DNA from: Candidatus Thorarchaeota archaeon
GTDB lineage: Archaea > Asgardarchaeota > Thorarchaeia > Thorarchaeales > Thorarchaeaceae
Length of the DNA: 33,501 bases
Assembly (NCBI GenBank): GCA_048882485.1
Contig: JBHLRP010000034.1
Span: 1 to 33,501, forward strand
Direction of reading: 5' to 3'
Within the stretch, counting starts at the first letter, position 1. Every line of letters starts with the position of its first letter. The notes under the pieces were generated by a model. That model was not told the DNA's origin. It worked only from the letters and a program-made list of their open reading frames with translations, and made no database searches. The translations under genes were made by a program, and so were the position numbers. Of the stretch, positions 14,458 through 33,501 are shown piece by piece.

Positions 14458-16218
14458 CTAGAATTGTTGCATGAAAGTGAAATCACTACCTTTTAGCCAT
14501 CCGAGATTCAAAGGCAGCTGATGCTTTTTCTTTATCCTTTTCAAATATTGAATGTCATCATCTGTTGGTTCAGATTCTATTAGAATAATCCAATTATCAG
14601 CAGGTTTCCGCCCCTCATAGTAGTTGTACTCGAGAACTTGTCCAATGGCTTCTCTTATTGCATATTTAGTGGAAACCTTGTAGACAATTTTAATTTCCAC
14701 CATATACGTGATGCGGTCATCTTGAAAAGTCACATCAATCTGATCCTTCTCAACCCTAATTCTATCATAGCCCTCATTGGCCAACCATTTCGCAAACTTG
14801 CGAGATAAACGTCTATGACGTGGCTGAATTACTTTCATCATTTTTCGCGTGGCACGAAGATAATCTGATGCTTCTGGCGGTATTTCGCTTTCTGGTTCAG
14901 AATCTGAATCGACGTCTTTCAGAGGCTTTGCAGTTTTCTTTTTCATGAATGAGGTTAATTCACTTGGTTCTAATTCATTGAGAAGGGTTAGATATAGGGG
15001 ATACAAAAGCTCAAGAATCGATTTTACTCTTTCAGGAAGAAGTGGAGCACGTAGAATATCATCTGGAGGCAGTCTGGCTTCATTGAAAGATGCCCAACCT
15101 GAATTATCTTGATAAATTGACCCTAATTCAAGTATCTCATTGATGGTGGAACGTGGAGTTTCGTAAGAGTATTCCTTCCCTGACTGGTACCAAAATGCGT
15201 CTAGATTCTTGAGGATATCTAGAATTGACAGAGGTTCTTTGATGCAGACATCTGCTAGTCTTTGATGCTCAATATTGCACTCACTGGGTATTTCAATTCC
15301 GACAGTGAATTTGTCATTATAGATTCCGAAATTAAGTTGGGGATTCTTGTGATACGGTTCGTCAAACGTAAAAGCAGCCCAGATTCCATTTACTCTTCCC
15401 CGCGATAATTTGCATTTGCTAATGTTCAGAATAAATCGAGAATCCATAGACAACACATAAGGTTCCACCTCAAAAGCAAGTTTCTCTATTTTCTCTCGGA
15501 CTTCACATCTCTCATCATCATACTGTTTGTCCCTATGTTTATGCATTTCAAAAGCTTCGAAGTCAGAATCTTTGAACCCTTCAAATTGAGGCGAAATGAT
15601 TTTTGTTAATCCGGATGCTGTTGGTAATACGTCATGAGCCACATGTGAAATGAATTCGTCAGTGATGCCAAAGTCTGCAAATCCTCCTAAATCCCTCAAT
15701 GCCTTTATTGCAGAGGTTATACGAATGTATCTCTCTCCCAGTGACTCACCGCGAATTGTTGGAGGTATAAGTCCAATTTTATGTAAGCCTTTTTCTACTG
15801 CTGAATTCCAAATTGCACAGGTATCAGGATATATGACATTTAAAATGGTGGAGATGAAATCTTTTCCTGCATTACTGAGCTTATACTTGCCTTCACTTGA
15901 AACAGTTTCTGAGAGTCTTTTAGATAAATCATCTTCACCATATAAGATATAATAAAGAGATTCTCTAATCTGATTAATACCGTTTGATCTAAATTCTTCT
16001 GGTTTTCGGGATCTACCAGTTCGAAGTTTACTAAATACTTCCATGGCTTCTTCAATTAATAGTGTAGAGATTCTTGCTTTTGCAATCAACTCAGGGATCT
16101 TTCCTACACGTTGATTCCACCATATTGGACGCCATTCTTCATAGCTTAAGCCATTGTAATCACTTTGCGGGGTCCTGAACTCTTCAATTAGCTGATCTAG
16201 TATGTCCTGTGCTATCAC
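14458..16218 (-). CDS. Multi-domain restriction endonuclease-like protein (C-terminal PD-(D/E)xK)
   Basis: C-terminal IDVTF...MVEIK...AIREAIGQVLEY nuclease motifs. Central FEGFKDSDFEAF resembles a DUF1054/DUF2461-like start. AT-rich. Confidence 0.75.
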   Translation of the reverse strand: MIAQDILDQLIEEFRTPQSDYNGLSYEEWRPIWWNQRVGKIPELIAKARISTLLIEEAMEVFSKLRTGRSRKPEEFRSNGINQIRESLYYILYGEDDLSKRLSETVSSEGKYKLSNAGKDFISTILNVIYPDTCAIWNSAVEKGLHKIGLIPPTIRGESLGERYIRITSAIKALRDLGGFADFGITDEFISHVAHDVLPTASGLTKIISPQFEGFKDSDFEAFEMHKHRDKQYDDERCEVREKIEKLAFEVEPYVLSMDSRFILNISKCKLSRGRVNGIWAAFTFDEPYHKNPQLNFGIYNDKFTVGIEIPSECNIEHQRLADVCIKEPLSILDILKNLDAFWYQSGKEYSYETPRSTINEILELGSIYQDNSGWASFNEARLPPDDILRAPLLPERVKSILELLYPLYLTLLNELEPSELTSFMKKKTAKPLKDVDSDSEPESEIPPEASDYLRATRKMMKVIQPRHRRLSRKFAKWLANEGYDRIRVEKDQIDVTFQDDRITYMVEIKIVYKVSTKYAIREAIGQVLEYNYYEGRKPADNWIILIESEPTDDDIQYLKRIKKKHQLPLNLGWLKGSDFTFMQQF

Positions 16219-20819: not shown

Positions 20820-21716
20820 TTAATATTCAGTGTCAATCTGTTCGAAGAAAGCATCATCAATCTCATTGATTGCGTACTGCTCCACCACTTCCACTCCAAG
20901 GCCATGGTCAATCATCAGCTCTGCAAGCTTCTCTCCATCAACGAGAACAACACTGGGATCCCTCTGTTCCATTGCAGGCTTTGAAAACTGTGAGGTTGTG
21001 ATGAGTATCCCCTTCCTTGCCCCCTTCCTAGCAAGGGCCCCCTCGAAGGCAGTCACCACAGGATCTCCGACTGTCCTATCCCATTGTTTGGCTTGAATGT
21101 ATATCTTGTAGAGCCCAAGCTTGTCCTGCCAGATGATTCCGTCTATTCCTTGGTCACCGGAACCACCAGTAACGAAAGATGAGTCTTCAAGACCGTATCC
21201 CATCTTGTTCAGAAGTTTCACAACGAGGCGCTCAAAGGCGCGATAAGATATCTCTCTTGTCTTCTTCAGGACGTCCTGCACTAAGATGCTTCTGAGTTCC
21301 TTGCAATTTTCAATCATAGACTCTCGCGGTCCACCAGGAGTCTCCTCCTCTTCTTCTCTCTCCTTGTCCTTCTTTATACGTTCTCTATGTTCCCGATACT
21401 TCTCGAACTTCATGAGATATTTCCTATCCATCTGCTCAACACCAGATTCCAGCTCCTCTTTTCCATCGGGTGTGATGAGGAACTTGCCTCGTCCAGCAGG
21501 TTCGAGGAGTCCCGCACGTTTCAGTTCATGTAGTGCCCAACCAACACGATTGCTGATGACTGACTGTCCATGCTTCAAGGTTCTAGCTCTATCCTCCTTC
21601 GATAGCTTGAACTCATCAGCCACGGCACTGACCACGTCCTTGAAGACCTTGACTTCGCCATCGCTAGCATATCTCAGAAGTGTGATCATACATTCTTGAA
21701 ACGAAGGTATTGTCAT
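20820..21716 (-). CDS. mrr: Mrr type IV restriction endonuclease
   Basis: Mrr N-terminus (MTIPSFQ...NRVGWA...KRAGLLE) and catalytic FERLVVKLL.KMGYG...DQGIDG...YIQAKQW. Confidence 0.93.
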   Translation of the reverse strand: MTIPSFQECMITLLRYASDGEVKVFKDVVSAVADEFKLSKEDRARTLKHGQSVISNRVGWALHELKRAGLLEPAGRGKFLITPDGKEELESGVEQMDRKYLMKFEKYREHRERIKKDKEREEEEETPGGPRESMIENCKELRSILVQDVLKKTREISYRAFERLVVKLLNKMGYGLEDSSFVTGGSGDQGIDGIIWQDKLGLYKIYIQAKQWDRTVGDPVVTAFEGALARKGARKGILITTSQFSKPAMEQRDPSVVLVDGEKLAELMIDHGLGVEVVEQYAINEIDDAFFEQIDTEY

Positions 21717-22888: not shown

Positions 22889-23626
22889 TTAGCACCCAGT
22901 TGCAGCGATGGCGCTAACAACAGCAGAAGTTCCCACAGCTATCTTAAACACAAAGACACAACCTACCCATACTAGGCAATTCATTAAAACGTAGATTCCG
23001 ATTCCTGCAACTGCTGCGATTAGATACCATTTCCACTCCTCCAAAGGCGAATGGTATTCGCCCCGCCCTCGGGTCTTGCTCTTTGACCTTTGGTTCACCA
23101 AGTTGTTGAGATTCTCTTCCACGCGACCTAGGAGAGTTCCAATATTACTATCCTCCATCATCACATTAAATGAACTCTCCGCTATATCCACAAGCTCTTC
23201 AGCTACTTCAGGTTCTAAGTCGTATTCCAAGAGTTCACGTCTGAAGCTGTCCATTACTTGTCTGCGACTATCTTTCAGTTTTTCAGGGCTTTTTAGAACA
23301 TTGTTCAGTTGTGAGAGCTTGGTGTCGCTTAGTCGGGACCTGCATTCTTTCAGCTGTTTTATAGCTCGCTTGATGTGTTTCATACTATCCTTGTGATGAC
23401 GGTCTTCTAACTTATCCAAGTAGTCGATAGAGTCATGAAAACCAAGAATGCTGGCACGACGTTTAGCCTTGAATGACATTTCACTGCGAATAATAGCCTC
23501 TGCTCCACTCCACAGTGAATCCGAGAATTCACCAAGCCCAACAGTATCCTCATTAATATCTCTCCATTCTGCGATAGACTCCTTTCGCAATGGTATCTTC
23601 CAAAAGACCTCCTTCTTATGTTGCAT
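22889..23626 (-). CDS. Hypothetical helical protein with C-terminal hydrophobic, Cys-containing hairpin
   Basis: Charged helical first ~190 aa, basic linker RSKSKTRGRG, then HSPLEEWKWYLIAAVAGIGIYVLMNCLVWVGC...AATGC. Confidence 0.8.
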   Translation of the reverse strand: MQHKKEVFWKIPLRKESIAEWRDINEDTVGLGEFSDSLWSGAEAIIRSEMSFKAKRRASILGFHDSIDYLDKLEDRHHKDSMKHIKRAIKQLKECRSRLSDTKLSQLNNVLKSPEKLKDSRRQVMDSFRRELLEYDLEPEVAEELVDIAESSFNVMMEDSNIGTLLGRVEENLNNLVNQRSKSKTRGRGEYHSPLEEWKWYLIAAVAGIGIYVLMNCLVWVGCVFVFKIAVGTSAVVSAIAATGC

Positions 23627-24292
23627 CTAAAAACCTCCATTGGCTGCATTTCCATTAGAAACGAGGGAACCTAGCCTTGCTTGATGGATGTGTGCTCTTT
23701 TGCAGTCTAAGATAGCAGTATGTCCGCCGATCTAGAATCGGATAATGCCTAGTGCCGCACTTCAACTCTGTATTTCCCTCTGTCTGCGCGGCACATCTTG
23801 CCCTATCAGGTGAAATGCGTACGCCAGCTAATCAACCATTCATTTGATATAACTCTTTCCACAAAGGGGGCTTTTCGATTGAAACCAAACGATCAACCGA
23901 TGATAGGGATGGCAATATGAGTTCATGTGCAGAACTCGTCATAGTTCGCATCTCATTCAACCTATTGCGACAATGTGAGTTATTAGTCCCGAGTCTTAAA
24001 AAACCGAAATCTTATCTCTCTAATGGATTTTGAAAGCTTATATAAGATAGATTTCTGAATCCTAATCACAACGATTTCTTCATCTTATACAGAATTTATA
24101 ATCATTTGACAATCAATCGAAACTTTCATATCGAAGGTCATAGTTCTAAATAGTTGTAGGTTCGTTGATGGAATCTAGGATTCACTGATTCGAGAACGCA
24201 CTACTTCTGATTCCGAACCAAAGCAGTTTAGAGAACATTAGAAAAGGCATCCAAATAACTGGATCCCTTAATCACTCAGAGGAGGAATAGGC

Positions 24293-26095
24293 ATGGCTGA
24301 AACATTCCGAGGCCGCTGGCGAATTACTGTTAAGGGTAGACAAGCATCCTTCGATCAGCGCTTTGTGATAACAGGCAGTGACACTAGTGATGGCACATAT
24401 CCCGGCGTCGTGGGGTCTCCGGAAATCATTGTTGACGGAGCTGCAGGCTGGCAAGTTCAAATCCAGCATAACGATGGAAGTGGATGGAAAGATTCATTGA
24501 TGCGTCAGGCAAACCAAGTCGTTAATGGGGCAAGTCTTCAATTGGACATCGAGTCTGAAGATTGGACTGACATGGATTGGACTGATTTAGTATTAGCAAT
24601 GGAGAAAGTGGGTCCGATTATTACAATTCCAATAAGACCCTATGCAATTGAAACAATATCTCTCCAAATGATGCCCGATGGAATATTTGAATCCGCCCTT
24701 GGGGGTTACTTCATGGGAGTCCGTGTGATGAATATCTGGGGCAAGCCATTCAAGGAAGGGCAATACATTGAAGTCACGCGCCAGAGTCGAGTCCTACTCG
24801 CTGCTCAGAACATACGGATTATCGATACATGGTCTCAGGCGGAGTTACAGTCTTTCAATCAGCAATTGTATGAAACGGGTGTGGTTATTGGGGCTCTGGA
24901 ACCTTTTCAATCTAGAACCATCTACTTCAAGATTGACTGCGGGGGTGCGATGCCACACAAGCCTACAGTGGAGTTTGTATGCCGAGAACCCAATCCTATG
25001 CCTGATCCAGATTCTTCGCGACGCAAAGCTTCATACACTATCTACGTGACTAGGAGTTACATTGATCCTGTGAACCATGAGATGGTGGCTGAAGCACCTG
25101 AGGGAAGAATAAGAATGGCCCTACGAGAGGCTATAGTAGATACAATATCAGCGAGGAAAGGACGAAGGCGTCGTAAGAAGCCACCAGCTCCCACACAAGC
25201 GACTGGAGAACTGCAGTCCATCTTGAAGAAACTCAAGACAGGACGTTTTCAGGATCTATGTCAGCTGCATAAGCTTCTTCATTGCTATTGTAATTGTCTA
25301 GATTTGCTTCGAGTGGATGACGATCCGACTAAGCCTAAAGACCCACGCTTCGAGTATGATCCCTTTTTAGTTTTGCCAACCAAATTCACATATACACTGC
25401 AATGCACGCCGTATGAAGGAGTCCACAGTCCATTGCCATTTCAAGATCCTTGGTGGAAAGTTCTACTCCTGGTGATTGCAATAGTTCTTCTCATCGCTGG
25501 TATGATTAGCGAAGGTGCTGATCTCGCATATCAAGATGAGGATCTTATTATCGGTTCTCTTGAAGAATGGCAAAGGCATGATATTGATGCTGCCCTCACA
25601 AGACTCAATGACCACAGGACTCTACCGATCCCGTTTCTCCAGTATCTTGACGCTCAGAATGGTGAGGTCAGTACTATACCAGTCGAACCAGTCGGGGCTC
25701 CCACGCTGGGAGGTGTAGTTTCACTTCCAGGTGAAGTCATGACAAAACAAGAGATCATTGACATTCTGGCTTTTGGCACCCGGGACGATAAACGAGTTTT
25801 TAAGACCGGTGCAAGGACGGGTTTGACCCACGCCCTCATCGATGGTCTGAGCCCCTGGTCGGATGCAAGGGATGATGGCACGATGTTCACAATCGACCAG
25901 GTGCATTTTGCACGCGATCCAGACAATAATATGCCAATTAGCAGAAAAGGAGACTCAGGCTCAGTATGGATACATAAGAATAGTATGAAGCTGGTGGCTC
26001 TTAATCACAGCGGCAGTAAAGACGAGAGCGGCAATAGCGCATGGGGTTCTCTAATTGAAGACATTGTATCGAAACTAGGTATTCGATTCTCATAG
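24293..26095 (+). CDS. LecB-like N-domain, TM helix and C-terminal half (Asp+Ser) of trypsin-like serine protease
   Basis: RBS GGAGG. SEDWTDMDWTD motif, TM WWKVLLLVIAIVLLIAG, DIDAAL (D432), VFKTGARTGLT, KGDSGS (S555), LVALNHSG. No catalytic-His motif found. Confidence 0.85.
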   Translation: MAETFRGRWRITVKGRQASFDQRFVITGSDTSDGTYPGVVGSPEIIVDGAAGWQVQIQHNDGSGWKDSLMRQANQVVNGASLQLDIESEDWTDMDWTDLVLAMEKVGPIITIPIRPYAIETISLQMMPDGIFESALGGYFMGVRVMNIWGKPFKEGQYIEVTRQSRVLLAAQNIRIIDTWSQAELQSFNQQLYETGVVIGALEPFQSRTIYFKIDCGGAMPHKPTVEFVCREPNPMPDPDSSRRKASYTIYVTRSYIDPVNHEMVAEAPEGRIRMALREAIVDTISARKGRRRRKKPPAPTQATGELQSILKKLKTGRFQDLCQLHKLLHCYCNCLDLLRVDDDPTKPKDPRFEYDPFLVLPTKFTYTLQCTPYEGVHSPLPFQDPWWKVLLLVIAIVLLIAGMISEGADLAYQDEDLIIGSLEEWQRHDIDAALTRLNDHRTLPIPFLQYLDAQNGEVSTIPVEPVGAPTLGGVVSLPGEVMTKQEIIDILAFGTRDDKRVFKTGARTGLTHALIDGLSPWSDARDDGTMFTIDQVHFARDPDNNMPISRKGDSGSVWIHKNSMKLVALNHSGSKDESGNSAWGSLIEDIVSKLGIRFS

Positions 26096-26112
26096 GAGGT
26101 TGCAGTCTAAAT

Positions 26113-27879
26113 ATGAAAACGAATGGTAAGGAGCTTGAAAAAAGGCAGAAACTGCTTGAGAAATTGCAGCATGCTGTAGAGAAGGCTAGGCGTTTATGGA
26201 GAAATGACTCCAATATTATCAGCATCGGCATTGGATCGAAACATCAGGATGGCAAAGTTACGGAGGAACTAGCTATCGTATTTCATGTCCATAAGAAGCT
26301 TAGATCAGAAACTGCAATACACACAATTGGCAGTAGGACAATCCCATCGGAGTTTGAGGGTTTTCCCACAGATGTGAAAGTCTTCGACGCTGTGTCATCT
26401 GGAGGCGCCACGGGTAATAGAGATGAAACAAGATATGACCCGCTCGTCGGTGGTGTGGCAACTAGCAATGCAGAAAATAACATCGTCTGGTTCAACGGAT
26501 ATGGCACTCTCGGCACACTATGCTTTCTAAATGATTCTCCTATGGCTCTATCTAACTGGCACGTGTGGGCAGATGGAGGTGACAAGGGTGATGACATCAT
26601 CCAACCAGGCCATCCCCGAGGTAGTGAGCACCTTGAAGGCTTGGCGAAGGTCGCTTTTTGCGGCCCACTTCTTGGCTCTCTTTTTGAGTGGGAAGCCCCA
26701 TCACCCTTAACTTGGGGTCTGTATGGGGGCGCGGCTGCTGCTGCTATTGCAGCAGCCGCGAGTGATGAGATAGATCCAATGCGTCGTGGGCAGAACGCCA
26801 CTCCAACAGATCCAGGAGAACTCACATTAGAGGAACAAGTAGACATAGTGATTGACTATCTGGATCAGCCCATACCAGGAACACCCTACAAGTTGAAAAC
26901 AGTCTGGGAGTATCAAAGGACAACAGACAAGAAGATTCACACCCACGAGGTCAAGGAGGAATTAGTGAACCCGCATTACTTGACTCTCAAGCGGCTGTGG
27001 AGTGACCAAGGTAAGTACAGACCGGGGAGCAAAATCCGCTTGTACGCCTTGGTTGCTAGTCCCCATTCACGGCCATGCCAATCCTACTACGTTGTAGCAC
27101 ATTCCATCCCTGATAGCAATCCCTCAAAGCTTGTGTCAACCGTACTCAGTCCTGTATCATGCGACTCTTTGCCACTTATTGACGATGGAGAAGACAAGAT
27201 GAAATGTGTTGATTTCTCTCCTGAAAAGCCGAGCACCCTGTTTCCTCATGTTATTCAGCGAGAAGATGTGCGTTTTGAGGTTCCTGCGCAGCTAAAGGAA
27301 GGTAACCGTATTGTTGATTTCTCGGGAGATGGGGCTGGGGAGCTCTTCTTGCACAATGAGCTTATAGCCTATATTCCTCTCTCCACAACAGTAGAAGCAA
27401 CTGTATTCTTTAACCACTCTGGACTCACAATGGACGCATATTACCAAGGACATCTGGTAGATTCAGCTCAGGTGTCTGGCAAAACTGGGCGAACTATGAA
27501 ACTTCTCACAAAATCTCGAGCGATAGACCGCATAGTCTTGAAGGGAGGTCAGTGGGAATCCTCTTTGCTTAGGCTCTGCTATACACCCATCACAATTAAG
27601 AAAGGTCCATCAGGTGAGCTAAACCTACTAGTCCAAGGAAAGAAGAAAGGTATGTACATCTGCTGTTACACTGGCGAGTTAGTTGTTTCCCCCAGCGAAC
27701 AACCAAGCACATGGAAGAACTATCTAATGGTTCAAAACATAAACGACGTCCCCGGAGGCGTTCCACCTGAAGAAGCAGCGACAACAATCGGGGGATTGAT
27801 TGTATCCCAGAATATGGAAGCCCAACTCGCAGGATGCGGAGCAGTAATGGCTGCTGATCACCTGTTTGATATAATTTGA
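26113..27879 (+). CDS. Nal1-type pro-domain, N-terminal part (His) of trypsin-like protease and beta-rich C-terminal domains
   Basis: RBS GGAGG. IGIGSK...AIVFHVHKK...IPSEFEGFPTDV pro-domain, PLVGG, GTLG, LSNWHV (H150), GDDIIQPG. No GDSG motif. Confidence 0.85.
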   Translation: MKTNGKELEKRQKLLEKLQHAVEKARRLWRNDSNIISIGIGSKHQDGKVTEELAIVFHVHKKLRSETAIHTIGSRTIPSEFEGFPTDVKVFDAVSSGGATGNRDETRYDPLVGGVATSNAENNIVWFNGYGTLGTLCFLNDSPMALSNWHVWADGGDKGDDIIQPGHPRGSEHLEGLAKVAFCGPLLGSLFEWEAPSPLTWGLYGGAAAAAIAAAASDEIDPMRRGQNATPTDPGELTLEEQVDIVIDYLDQPIPGTPYKLKTVWEYQRTTDKKIHTHEVKEELVNPHYLTLKRLWSDQGKYRPGSKIRLYALVASPHSRPCQSYYVVAHSIPDSNPSKLVSTVLSPVSCDSLPLIDDGEDKMKCVDFSPEKPSTLFPHVIQREDVRFEVPAQLKEGNRIVDFSGDGAGELFLHNELIAYIPLSTTVEATVFFNHSGLTMDAYYQGHLVDSAQVSGKTGRTMKLLTKSRAIDRIVLKGGQWESSLLRLCYTPITIKKGPSGELNLLVQGKKKGMYICCYTGELVVSPSEQPSTWKNYLMVQNINDVPGGVPPEEAATTIGGLIVSQNMEAQLAGCGAVMAADHLFDII

Positions 27880-28172
27880 CTCCATTAATCGCCTATGCAG
27901 TACTCTTGGAAGGATGGAGTCCATACCTGTTGATTTTGGTCGGTTATGCCTATGTGGCCGCATTCTTCCCTGTCCTGATTGAAAACGGTCTGGGGCGGAT
28001 GATCTCTCACGTTGAAGCAACCGCTGAGGACATTGAAATGATTAGAGAGGCTGAGCGGACTGCAACTCATCATGTGCGCACTTGTTCTGAATGCGGTAGA
28101 GAGATACTGATTCCGAAGGAAGAGAGAGGAGTCACTACATGTCCCAATTGCGGAAAGAGGCAAGTATTGTAG
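27876..28172 (+). CDS. Small membrane-anchored zinc-ribbon protein
   Basis: Hydrophobic N-terminus and CSECG...CPNCG. TTG start overlaps the upstream stop (TTGA). Could be a 3' gene remnant. Confidence 0.55.
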   Translation: MTPLIAYAVLLEGWSPYLLILVGYAYVAAFFPVLIENGLGRMISHVEATAEDIEMIREAERTATHHVRTCSECGREILIPKEERGVTTCPNCGKRQVL

Positions 28173-28228
28173 TCCACAATACTTGTGAGAGTCTTATATG
28201 GTTGCACGAGTACTATGAACGAGCACTC

Positions 28229-28900
28229 ATGGTTATCGTAGCCAAACCGAGAAAGGTAATTGTACGATTACATGATGCGTTCGAAGACATTCGTTTCAGC
28301 TTGGACAAAGATGTCAGGTGGTTCGACAATGCGGTGCCGCATGTCGAGAATTGCTTTGAGTTCCTCCGAAAACGTGCCATGTCAACCCGTGATCTTGTGA
28401 AGCTCTTTGGCTTTCTATGGCCGAACATCGACCCCGAAATGAAGGAGAAGGAGTTCCTACAGCGATTGACGATAATCATAAGGACTAACTATGTGTTCAG
28501 TCTCTCATCCGCTGAGTACTTCCTAAAGAACGTCATCAAGGCGTCAAAGAGTGGTCCACTCGTGGACTGGCTTCAGGAGAAGACTGAAGAGGCAAAGATG
28601 GAGGACAAGATATTCTGGATGTATCTCACCAACATCATGAAGGAGTCCAAGCGAAAGAAGCTGATAACCAAGACGCAACACAAGAACTGGGATGGATTGG
28701 CCCAACTACGCAATGTCATCATACACAACAATGGCGTCTTTGAGAGGAGTAGAGTAATTCGTATCGGAGGAGTCAAGATTACTGCAGAGGCAGGAGAGCA
28801 GATAGACACCAAGCTGATAAACTATCCCAAGTTCATGAGGACCCTCATCAGGTTGACTCGGGCATGGATTGAGAAGTATCTAGTCGACCATGAGTTTTGA
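28229..28900 (+). CDS. HEPN-like protein
   Basis: Helical protein with SAEYFLK and WDGLAQLRNVIIHNNG (Rx4H). ATG 28229 preferred to avoid overlap with the upstream gene. Confidence 0.7.
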   Translation: MVIVAKPRKVIVRLHDAFEDIRFSLDKDVRWFDNAVPHVENCFEFLRKRAMSTRDLVKLFGFLWPNIDPEMKEKEFLQRLTIIIRTNYVFSLSSAEYFLKNVIKASKSGPLVDWLQEKTEEAKMEDKIFWMYLTNIMKESKRKKLITKTQHKNWDGLAQLRNVIIHNNGVFERSRVIRIGGVKITAEAGEQIDTKLINYPKFMRTLIRLTRAWIEKYLVDHEF

Positions 28901-29120: not shown

Positions 29121-29135
29121 CGAGCCACCGTTTCT

Positions 29136-32218
<3,083 letters not shown>

Positions 32219-32234
32219 TTACTCTTGTGACCGG

Positions 32235-32266
32235 CACAGTATTACCTGTTGTCAAGGAGTTGTAAC
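32235..32266 (-). other. 5' arm of pre-23S processing stem (bulge-helix-bulge)
   Basis: Transcript GUUACAACU-CCUUGACAAC-AGGU-AAU-ACUGUG gives a 3-nt bulge, 4-bp helix and 3-nt bulge with the 3' arm. Confidence 0.9.
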
Positions 32267-32778
32267 CATCGGTTGATTACGATTGTAACCCTAATCTTTG
32301 GTTGTGTATCAAAATCGAACATACATTTTGTGTACGTATGCCTTCATCCTCTGCAATCTCCACACAACGATTCTCAGTGCACAGCACATCAATGAATCAT
32401 ATGCTTCGACGGTCCTCCATCGGGAATGACTCCATCCTCCGGTCTGGTCCCGATGGGCCTTCCTCCATGCTAACCACGGAGTCCGGACCTCACACGCACA
32501 CACCACTATTTCTGTGGGGTGCGCTCCGTCAGCCGTCATGACTGACGTTTTAAAGCTTGCTGTACGCCGAGGTTCGCCAGAACGGCTCATGGCGACCTTC
32601 TATAGCCGCCAGACAACGCCTTCTCTACTCGACGAAAGCACACTATCTGTCCATCAATCCAAGATAAAGCTTACGCCCGATGCACAGGTTTTGTAGCCGT
32701 CGGGTACAAGTTTCACTCCAACGAATCTTTTATCACATATGACATCTGTAGATTCTCTCTGAGGGCGGCACGACTGCT

Positions 32779-33405
32779 ATGACTACCGATAACATCTACC
32801 AGGACCTATATGGTGTGAGTCCAGGAGTCATAGCTGCGATTATGGGACTCTTCACGCTGTTGACGCCTTATGGTGTTATGCCTGGTTGGTGGTTTCTTGG
32901 TAACGACTCAGTATATCCTGAAGCGAATATTCTATACTCACTTTTTTGGGTGCTTAGCCTCCAATCCACGAACGTGGGGCTTCATAACTTTGTAGCCTAC
33001 AATCCGGCTCTTCTCTGGACAACACTACCCCTCAGTCTGCCCAATGTCATTTTTGCTTTGAGAGTTGTGAGATACTACCAGAATCGAGCTAGTAAAGACG
33101 GTGTGCTGAGATGGGCGCTGATTGCGCTTTTTGCGCCTATGCTCCTTCTGTGCATTGAATTACTATGGATTCTAGAGATACTCTACGAAACTACTGATTA
33201 CATATATTATGGACCAATTCCAATTCAGATTGCAGTGGGACTGTTCATTATGTATCGTATCCGAGCTCCAGAGCTGGCTACTCCGTGGACAGAACCGGAA
33301 AGAGATGAGTCATGGTGGATAGAAGAAGGAATTGAAGAGTCCTGTGTTGGAAAGCTCTTCATCACAATGGAAGAACTTGACGAGATATACAAGATATGGG
33401 ACTGA
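32779..33405 (+). CDS. Hypothetical membrane protein
   Basis: 208 aa with about 5 hydrophobic segments and an acidic, Trp-containing tail. Confidence 0.75.
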   Translation: MTTDNIYQDLYGVSPGVIAAIMGLFTLLTPYGVMPGWWFLGNDSVYPEANILYSLFWVLSLQSTNVGLHNFVAYNPALLWTTLPLSLPNVIFALRVVRYYQNRASKDGVLRWALIALFAPMLLLCIELLWILEILYETTDYIYYGPIPIQIAVGLFIMYRIRAPELATPWTEPERDESWWIEEGIEESCVGKLFITMEELDEIYKIWD

Positions 33406-33501
33406 TCTGTTTGGGATTGACTGTATAGATTCTATCTATCCAGAAAGTGCTTTCTTCTGAATTTCCATCAGTTCTCGAATGCCTTTGGACGCAAGGTCAA
33501 G

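Follow-up and report, generated by a model that had tools for sequence, protein, structure and literature searches.

Three SPL strings in a Thorarchaeota contig: features of a putative split NAL1-type protease and of a rare, separate family of small membrane proteins

The question raised by this locus is whether three neighboring genes of a Candidatus Thorarchaeota archaeon, each encoding a Ser-Pro-Leu (SPL) string shortly before a hydrophobic segment, make up one system. The window, i.e., the whole stretch of 33,501 nucleotides of contig JBHLRP010000034.1 that was analyzed, holds a gene of 245 codons (here C) and, divergent from it and separated by a gap of 666 nt, the co-directional genes A and B, of which B starts 17 nt past the stop of A. 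A and B encode the two parts of a predicted serine protease. In the original prediction SPL, a following Trp and the hydrophobic segment were taken as one motif common to all three proteins, which was read as a cleavage site, a membrane-targeting signal or a homotypic assembly helix of a three-component system. This interpretation as a whole is partly supported by the analysis presented here. The explanation that we prefer, and consider likely, is that A and B are one machine, a split protease held by the two arms of an old hairpin, and that C is a separate, rare family found beside A/B in two known genomes only.

The observation of the three strings was partly confirmed. HSPL is found at residues 192–195 of C (His codon 23053–23051) and at residues 378–381 of A (His codon 25424–25426), as reported; in B the start of P-S-P-L at nt 26698 was given correctly, but the longer string quoted with it, E-A-P-S-P-L, really begins 6 nt earlier, at 26692. 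The main hydrophobic segment said to follow each string is clearly transmembrane (TM)-like in A and C, with Kyte–Doolittle maxima over 19 residues (KD19) of 2.63 and 2.29, but that of B reaches only 1.23, which is under the usual cut-off of 1.6.

Conservation was counted in alignments of 36 A homologues, 39 B homologues and 36 C-family sequences. In A the residues G376, D385, P386, W388, and K389 are present in all homologues, as is Leu or Ile at position 381, and P380 is kept in 35/36. The Ser of the string, S379, occurs in only 4/36 (Gly in 32/36) and H378 likewise in 4/36 (Tyr or Phe in 30/36), so that the family consensus reads G-Q-[YF]-G-P-[LI]-P-[FY]-x-D-P-W-W-K, and a canonical TM helix follows. 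In B, P196 is invariant (39/39) and S197 (35/39), P198 (34/39), and L/I199 (38/39) are nearly so, while the Trp of the proposed motif, W201, is found in five homologues. The surroundings in B are conserved almost residue by residue as E-W-E-A-P-S-P-L-[TA]-x-G-L-Y-G-G-A-A-A-A-A-I-A-A-A-A-S-D-x-x-D-P-x-R-R-G-Q. The C family has the consensus R-G-R-(E)-x-H-S-P-L-x-W-W-K, TM helix, conserved Cys and terminal G-C, with G187 in 36, K199 and C245 in 34 each, R186 and S193 in 33 each, P194 in 32, R188 and L/I195 in 31 each and W198 in 30 of the 36 sequences. SPL is a family feature in B and C but not in A, and P-L...WWK is one in A and C only. Judged from these alignments each string belongs to a feature that is conserved within its family, and the three features differ.

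The models made with AlphaFold2 (AF2) place the strings differently as well. The helix of B, residues 198–218, starts at Pro198 and is capped by Ser197, whereas the helix of A, residues 386–412, starts at Pro386 and is capped by Asp385, and its SPL lies six residues upstream of this cap in an extended invariant segment. Since Ser197-Pro198 of B caps a helix, the A string does not, and the usual form in A is G-P-L, the SPL identity between A and B is a coincidence of this lineage.

Comparison of the families as profiles leads to the same division. No similarity between A and B was found with hhalign, and profile comparison of B with C gave no match; the likeness in these two pairs is the tripeptide only. 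A single SPL/W motif common to the three proteins is in this way contradicted both by the column counts and by the profiles. The pair A and C is different. Their profiles align (hhalign E 5.5e-5, 66%) with h-S-P-L-(gap)-W-W-K and TM segment of C on y-G-P-L-P-F-x-D-P-W-W-K and TM segment of A, and when a C motif-plus-TM profile was run against the 3457 open reading frames (ORFs) of the genome, protein A was the best non-self match (E 0.0012). The pattern [SG]P[LIV]x(0-6)WW[KR] is present in 33/36 A, 18/36 C, and 0/39 B sequences, and its one match among the same 3457 ORFs is A itself. The reverse search, with the A sub-profile against the proteome, did not find C. In the ORF set of the genome 1.06% of the 18-aa sequences flanking TM-like segments contain SPL, about twice the value predicted from its proteome-wide frequency, and 0.15% contain SPL..W; any tripeptide common to random triples of flanks was met in 0.07% of draws. 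Taken at profile level the likeness between A and C is more than chance.

The best match of the A profile in the PDB is rice NAL1, over the G-D-S-G-S barrel (E 0.006), and the best match of the B profile is also NAL1, there covering the N-domain up to the catalytic His (E 0.13). When A 415–600 as modeled with AF2 was compared by VIA, it superimposed on chymotrypsin-fold proteases from roughly their residue 50 as far as the end (Deg1, Z 10.3; alpha-lytic homologues, Z 9.6), with NAL1 at Z 7.8 over 140–144 aligned residues and hepatitis C virus (HCV) NS3/4A at Z 8.2. The protease part of B modeled alone has a predicted confidence (pLDDT) below 50, as expected of an incomplete barrel; in the double beta-barrel fold the first strands, contributed by B, are assigned from sequence only and the rest from the superposition of A 415–600. 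The homology of both parts is established by an un-split ORF of 350 aa from the same taxonomic family (G351:C290, L271:745-1794). Its residues 34–166 align with B 32–172 (hhalign 93.8%) and its residues 256–348 with A 499–596 (94.4%), and it carries the Pfam domain NAL1_N (PF25608; 30.5 bits against a cut-off of 27). B itself has no Pfam match at E<=0.1, and its residues 32–90 align with the NAL1_N region of the un-split ORF. H150 of B and D432 (V-D-A-A-L) and S555 of A are invariant in the 39 B and 36 A homologues; in alignments they fall on the His and Ser regions of NAL1, in which the catalytic triad is H234/D291/S385 (PMC12012508). Sequence and model together indicate a protease of chymotrypsin fold (PA clan) and NAL1 type which is divided between His and Asp, with the His in B and the Asp and Ser in A.

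Like rice NARROW LEAF 1 (NAL1) and the prokaryotic NAL1-type proteases, A and B together have the N-terminal beta region, S/T-N-x-H-V, V-D-A-A, a K-S/T-G-x-x-T-G-x-T strand and G-D-S-G-S. They differ from them in that the fold is broken into two polypeptides between His and Asp, the gene order is permuted with the Asp/Ser part first, and each side of the break bears about 370 aa of additional domains together with a hydrophobic helix. The protease's own N-terminus is the start of B and its C-terminus the end of A; TM1 with the N-domains and helix 2 with the C-domains are attached at the cut loop. Unlike in a single-polypeptide protease the fold is divided over two genes wherever a two-gene locus was examined. 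A-B fusions seemed at first to exist as ORFs of 1195–1201 aa in L006 and L014, but they were rejected, since B there is a long open frame in high-GC DNA and A has its own stop; with these artefacts set aside, every locus seen has the split. Un-split NAL1-type proteases, about 340–460 aa long, were noted in 12/400 genomes of the same phylum (including G351:C290), and in one of these genomes another contig carries a close C-family gene.

The pairing of the two genes is widespread. A scan for A relatives with one genome per species gave 116 encoding places, and among the best 80 of these 116 loci B directly follows A in 77, in bacteria and archaea alike (Acidobacteriota, Chloroflexota, Actinomycetota, Cyanobacteria, Bacteroidota, Myxococcota, many Pseudomonadota, Methanosarcinales, and haloarchaea). 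No neighbor of A other than B is conserved in the loci examined. Each of the two proteins has about 85–100 homologue clusters, all unnamed and few with any precomputed Pfam domain. The closest A/B relatives, with 72% and 68% identity, have other upstream genes in place of C. A search of the 40 nearest genomes, 16 of which belong to the same genus, turned up neither A nor C. As the window is archaeal by its large subunit (LSU) rRNA gene but the closest A/B relatives are bacterial or metagenomic, arrival of A/B by transfer is suggested.

How the hydrophobic helices of A and B are related can be seen in relatives without protease. In loci L063–L081, and L101–L145 from metagenomes, one ORF of about 510–550 aa matches A 110–410 and then, about 50 residues on, B 217–291. 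More than 50 such protease-less relatives hold the A motif and TM1 together with the Ala-rich helix of B in one polypeptide, in the order A signature (G-Q-Y-G-D-L-P-F-Q-D-P-W-W-K) and TM1, Gly-rich acidic loop of 21–37 aa (median 31, n=50), Ala-rich A-A-G-L-V-A-A-A-A-A.. and S-D-x-R-D-P-x-R-R-G-Q. These unannotated single-chain hairpin proteins of about 520 aa (e.g., L064:7983-9581 from Marininema and L081:7992-9536 from Dyadobacter) resemble A in their Ig-like N-domain and G-Q-Y-G-x-L-P-F-Q-D-P-W-W-K with TM1, and B in the Ala-rich helix 2, the S-D-x-R-D-P-x-R-R-G-Q and the start of the C-domain; they differ in having neither a protease nor a LecB-like domain and in that the helices are linked by the Gly-rich loop, which contains a Cys-Cys. 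Since the single-chain relatives hold both as consecutive helices, the helices of A and B are, on this comparison, the two arms of one helical hairpin and a heterotypic pair. They are also unlike in composition, TM1 of A being bulky and Leu/Ile-rich and helix 2 of B rich in the small residues Ala and Gly. The proposed assembly helix accordingly survives in part: it holds for A and B as assembly elements, but these are heterotypic and not a homotypic helix marked by a motif. The common cleavage site is not supported, as the A signature is kept, and more strictly still, in more than 50 relatives lacking a protease altogether and so is not conserved as a site for the cognate protease.

Two further observations concern the single-chain genes. 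Their hairpin loops (L063–L081, L101–L145) are Gly-rich and acidic, with the Cys-Cys conserved. Upstream of these genes there is also, in nearly all cases, a conserved gene of about 270 aa without Pfam match (cluster c1, 12 loci; e.g., L064:7144-7962 and L081:7175-7981), and the two together are a separate conserved two-gene module.

The single chain, still extant in many bacteria and archaea, has about 520 aa consisting of N-domain, TM1, short loop, Ala-rich helix 2 and C-domain. In the A/B form a NAL1-type serine protease occupies the position of the hairpin loop, with the gene break at the protease's own natural ends. A comprises the N-domains, the motif with TM1 and the Asp432/Ser555 part of the protease, and B the His150 part followed by P-S-P-L, helix 2 and the C-domains. 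In the mechanism that is best supported, the Leu/Ile-rich TM1 of A would pack on the Ala-rich helix of B as in the ancestral hairpin and so bring His150 to Asp432/Ser555, in which case the catalytic triad would form only in the A-B heterodimer.

Several points weigh against the split protease held by hairpin arms, or against part of it. We infer the pairing of the helices and the reconstituted triad, and the insertion of the hairpin into a membrane is likewise inferred. The helix of B, with its KD of 1.23, is too weakly hydrophobic to count alone as a TM segment, and instead of spanning a membrane the hairpin may form a re-entrant structure or lie buried within an oligomer. No signal peptide was found in A or B. 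Lys and Arg number 2.9 on the flank after helix 2 against 0.1 on the flank before it, and these charges would place both sets of outer domains on the cis side and the loop, i.e., the protease, on the trans side. A protease on the trans side would need export of about 195 N-terminal residues of B, which would be unusual. With respect to C, the A protein of this window bears just the minor variant H-S-P-L that matches the C consensus, and the C family, rare as it is, lies within 700 nt of A/B in two genomes, in different orientations and in different domains of life.

C itself was at first considered an orphan gene, and a word-based search for homologues gave none. This candidate explanation was dropped when phmmer, run over 1.84e9 representatives, found 72 relatives (clusters) of about 240 aa, one of them annotated as from a Thorarchaeota metagenome-assembled genome (MAG). 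C is a member of a separate and rare family of small membrane proteins. The profile hidden Markov model of the family was run on six-frame translations of all 145 A/B and single-chain loci, and C was present in two: the window, and locus L069 from an Actinomycetota MAG, where a C member of 237 aa on the same strand starts 41 nt after a short B. It was not found beside A/B in the other 143, including the closest relatives at 68–72% identity (L002, L083, and L084). Lack of synteny between C and the protease pair had been named beforehand as the outcome that would speak against three components, and with 2/145 it is largely what was found. Within the phylum the family occurs in 5/400 genomes, this one included, and the other four, among them G186 (100% complete), G182 and G351, are without A/B. 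Elsewhere in five A/B-bearing genomes the only C matches were L069's own copy and a chance match in TatC, and no synteny was seen between the flanks of C in different genomes. Among 61 loci, three have non-homologous small proteins with a C-terminal TM segment adjoining A/B, none of them alike. A DNA pattern for R-G-R-x3-S-P-x-x-W-W-K gave 102 matches in genome contigs and 15 in viral contigs and led to no C-family gene beyond one fragment of 46 aa (L229), read as spurious; a further pattern (P0185) was discarded, its two matches both being false positives. Distant paralogues of the C family without the TM tail (L272:13920-17598 and L274:5208-8398) end in G-F-N-G-C-x-W-C-M-x-x-Y-H-T-D, and each precedes a large unannotated protein (869 and 716 aa), maybe another conserved pair.

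A conserved three-component system is not supported by this distribution. C is not a core third component; at most it joined A/B in two lineages as a facultative partner or substrate. Such a facultative partnership is plausible because C is rare and nevertheless found beside A/B in two distant organisms, and because its motif and TM segment resemble the A arm. One can picture C as a membrane partner or substrate whose SPLxWWK and TM segment mimic the A arm and dock on the hairpin, whereupon a cut by the putative protease at R-G-R would free a two-TM peptide ending in G-C. The different arrangements in the two genomes, divergent and 666 nt upstream in one and co-directional and 41 nt downstream of B in the other, the mere 72 clusters of the family, the likeness of C and A at profile level and the near-invariant R186-G187-R188 directly before the C motif are all in favor of it; against this, neither C nor a C-like gene occurs in about 60 other two-gene loci or in the closest relatives, and C exists without A/B in the complete genome G186 and in G182. 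As a worked-out alternative to the split protease with C as a separate family we regard it as unlikely, although it deserves consideration.

The opposite position is that everything about C is pure coincidence, C being an unrelated neighbor in a variable region and the strings generic features of helix entry, i.e., a Ser/Asp-Pro cap, an interfacial Trp and a Lys. Ser/Asp-Pro helix caps and interfacial Trp and Lys are indeed common at the start of TM helices, and in agreement with this SPL is enriched in TM flanks, a haloarchaeal TatC with S-S-P-I-P-V-W-K and a TM segment is caught by the C profile, and the A sub-profile fails to find C in the proteome. Of the 16 other genomes of the genus that were searched, none has A/B and none has C, which also agrees with a variable region. 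Yet a second independent adjacency, in L069, is very unlikely to arise by chance for two families so rare, and A is the top non-self match of the C motif profile. Because the C family is so rare the two adjacencies are hard to ascribe to chance, and pure coincidence seems to us quite improbable.

It may be speculated that the hairpin is a heterodimerization device which keeps the protease inactive until two membrane-associated, glycan-binding chains meet, and that C plugs into it through its mimic of the A arm (S/G-P-L-P..W-W-K with TM segment) as an inhibitor or pro-peptide which is cut at R-G-R and releases a membrane-active two-TM peptide. We hold this combination to be improbable; if true, it would be a modular protease-effector system common to Asgard-type archaea and bacteria.

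A triad divided over two separately encoded proteins that are joined by former hairpin arms would be an uncommon solution for building and controlling a serine protease. The nearest functional analogy is two-chain completion in flaviviral NS2B-NS3 and hepaciviral NS3/4A, chymotrypsin-fold proteases completed by a second, membrane-anchored polypeptide which supplies part of the barrel. In these viral two-chain proteases all three catalytic residues reside on a single chain and the cofactor contributes one or two strands, whereas in A/B the division runs through the triad and each chain has large domains outside the protease. The split arrangement persists in more than 60 genomes of Archaea and of many bacterial phyla, and the protease-less single chains show how such a split may arise, with a whole enzyme placed in a hairpin loop and the gene break at the enzyme's termini. 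For the locus itself the value of the analysis is mostly corrective, in that the shared motif resolves into three distinct features and the third gene has no conserved place in the system. The features discussed are collected in Table 1.

Table 1. Positions in the window of genes A, B, and C and of their domains, signatures and predicted catalytic residues
Feature	Position (nt)	Strand	Description or basis
Gene C	22889..23626	minus	ORF, 245 aa; helical soluble part of ~185 aa, then R-G-R-G-E-Y-H-S-P-L-E-E-W-K, then hydrophobic tail of ~46 aa ending G-C
C juxtamembrane signature, residues 186–199	23030..23071	minus	Alignment column counts
C hydrophobic tail, residues 200–245	22892..23029	minus	Probably two TM segments; conserved Cys, terminal G-C
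Gene A	24293..26095	plus	600 aa; LecB-like lectin, Ig-like sandwich, helical insert, motif and TM1, Asp/Ser protease part
A residues 1–108, LecB/PA-IIL-like lectin fold	24293..24616	plus	Foldseek and VIA structure comparison
A juxtamembrane signature, residues 376–389, G-V-H-S-P-L-P-F-Q-D-P-W-W-K	25418..25459	plus	Homologue alignment
A TM1, residues 390–411, putative hairpin arm 1	25460..25525	plus	KD19 2.63; AF2 helix 386–412
A residues 415–600, predicted last N-barrel strands and entire C-barrel of protease	25535..26092	plus	VIA, PDB profile match, hhalign
Asp432 of A	25586–25588	plus	Invariant in homologues
Ser555 of A (G-D-S-G-S)	25955–25957	plus	Invariant in homologues
Gene B	26113..27879	plus	588 aa; NAL1_N-like region and His protease part, P-S-P-L, Ala-rich helix 2, beta-sandwich, CBM-like C-terminal domains
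B residues 32–195, NAL1_N-like region and predicted first protease N-barrel strands	26206..26697	plus	PDB profile match; hhalign
His150 of B (S-N-W-H-V)	26560–26562	plus	Invariant in homologues
B P-S-P-L (196–199) and Ala-rich helix 2 (~198–218), putative hairpin arm 2	26698..26766	plus	Alignment; AF2 helix 198–218
B S-D-x-x-D-P-x-R-R-G-Q, residues 217–227, basic exit of helix 2	26761..26793	plus	Common to single-chain relatives
B residues 358–495, carbohydrate-binding module (CBM)-like jelly roll	27184..27597	plus	VIA structure comparison

The outer domains of the two protease genes suggest, from fold only, a glycan-binding role. A 1–108 resembles LecB-type lectins (Foldseek E 7e-6; VIA Z 9.8, root mean square deviation (rmsd) 2.8 over 100 aligned residues with 1gzt_A), and one A homologue carries Pfam PF07472. 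The likeness to the fucose-binding lectin LecB/PA-IIL is one of fold, and unlike in LecB the domain is here fused to a multidomain protein of 500 aa. B 358–495 matches 8wc1_A (VIA Z 13.0, rmsd 3.3, 130 aligned residues), and the outer domains of A and B also include Ig-like sandwiches. Both the lectin and the jelly roll sit on proteins without signal peptide. Pfam, NCBIfam, PADLOC, and the ESM Atlas gave nothing useful for A, B or C and hold no annotation for the hairpin proteins or the C family; among the PADLOC defense models there was no match for A or B and a marginal one for C (PDC-S06, E 0.0057).

The surroundings of A, B, and C in the window look like a variable, defense-island-like region. 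On the minus strand are an Mrr-type restriction endonuclease at 20820–21716 (Mrr_N and Mrr_cat, E 4e-33) and, at 14458–16218, a protein of 586 aa with a weak LmuA-like match (E 4e-4). Downstream of B, on the plus strand, a protein of 98 aa (27876–28172), whose start overlaps the B stop by 4 nt, has a hydrophobic segment at the N-terminus and a CxxC...CxxC zinc ribbon at the C-terminus, and is followed by a protein of 253 aa (28139–28900) with a HEPN-like R-N-V-I-I-H motif and weak matches to HepT and RTasHEPN; neither gene was seen adjoining A/B in any other locus. A scan for promoters and terminators gave no more than the shuffled expectation, the model being bacterial and the host an archaeon. 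A scan against Rfam found nothing between the genes, its sole match (RF02540, 262 bits for the portion that was searched) being the archaeal LSU rRNA gene at the far end of the window (29135–33501, minus strand), which starts about 230 nt beyond the last gene of the cluster.

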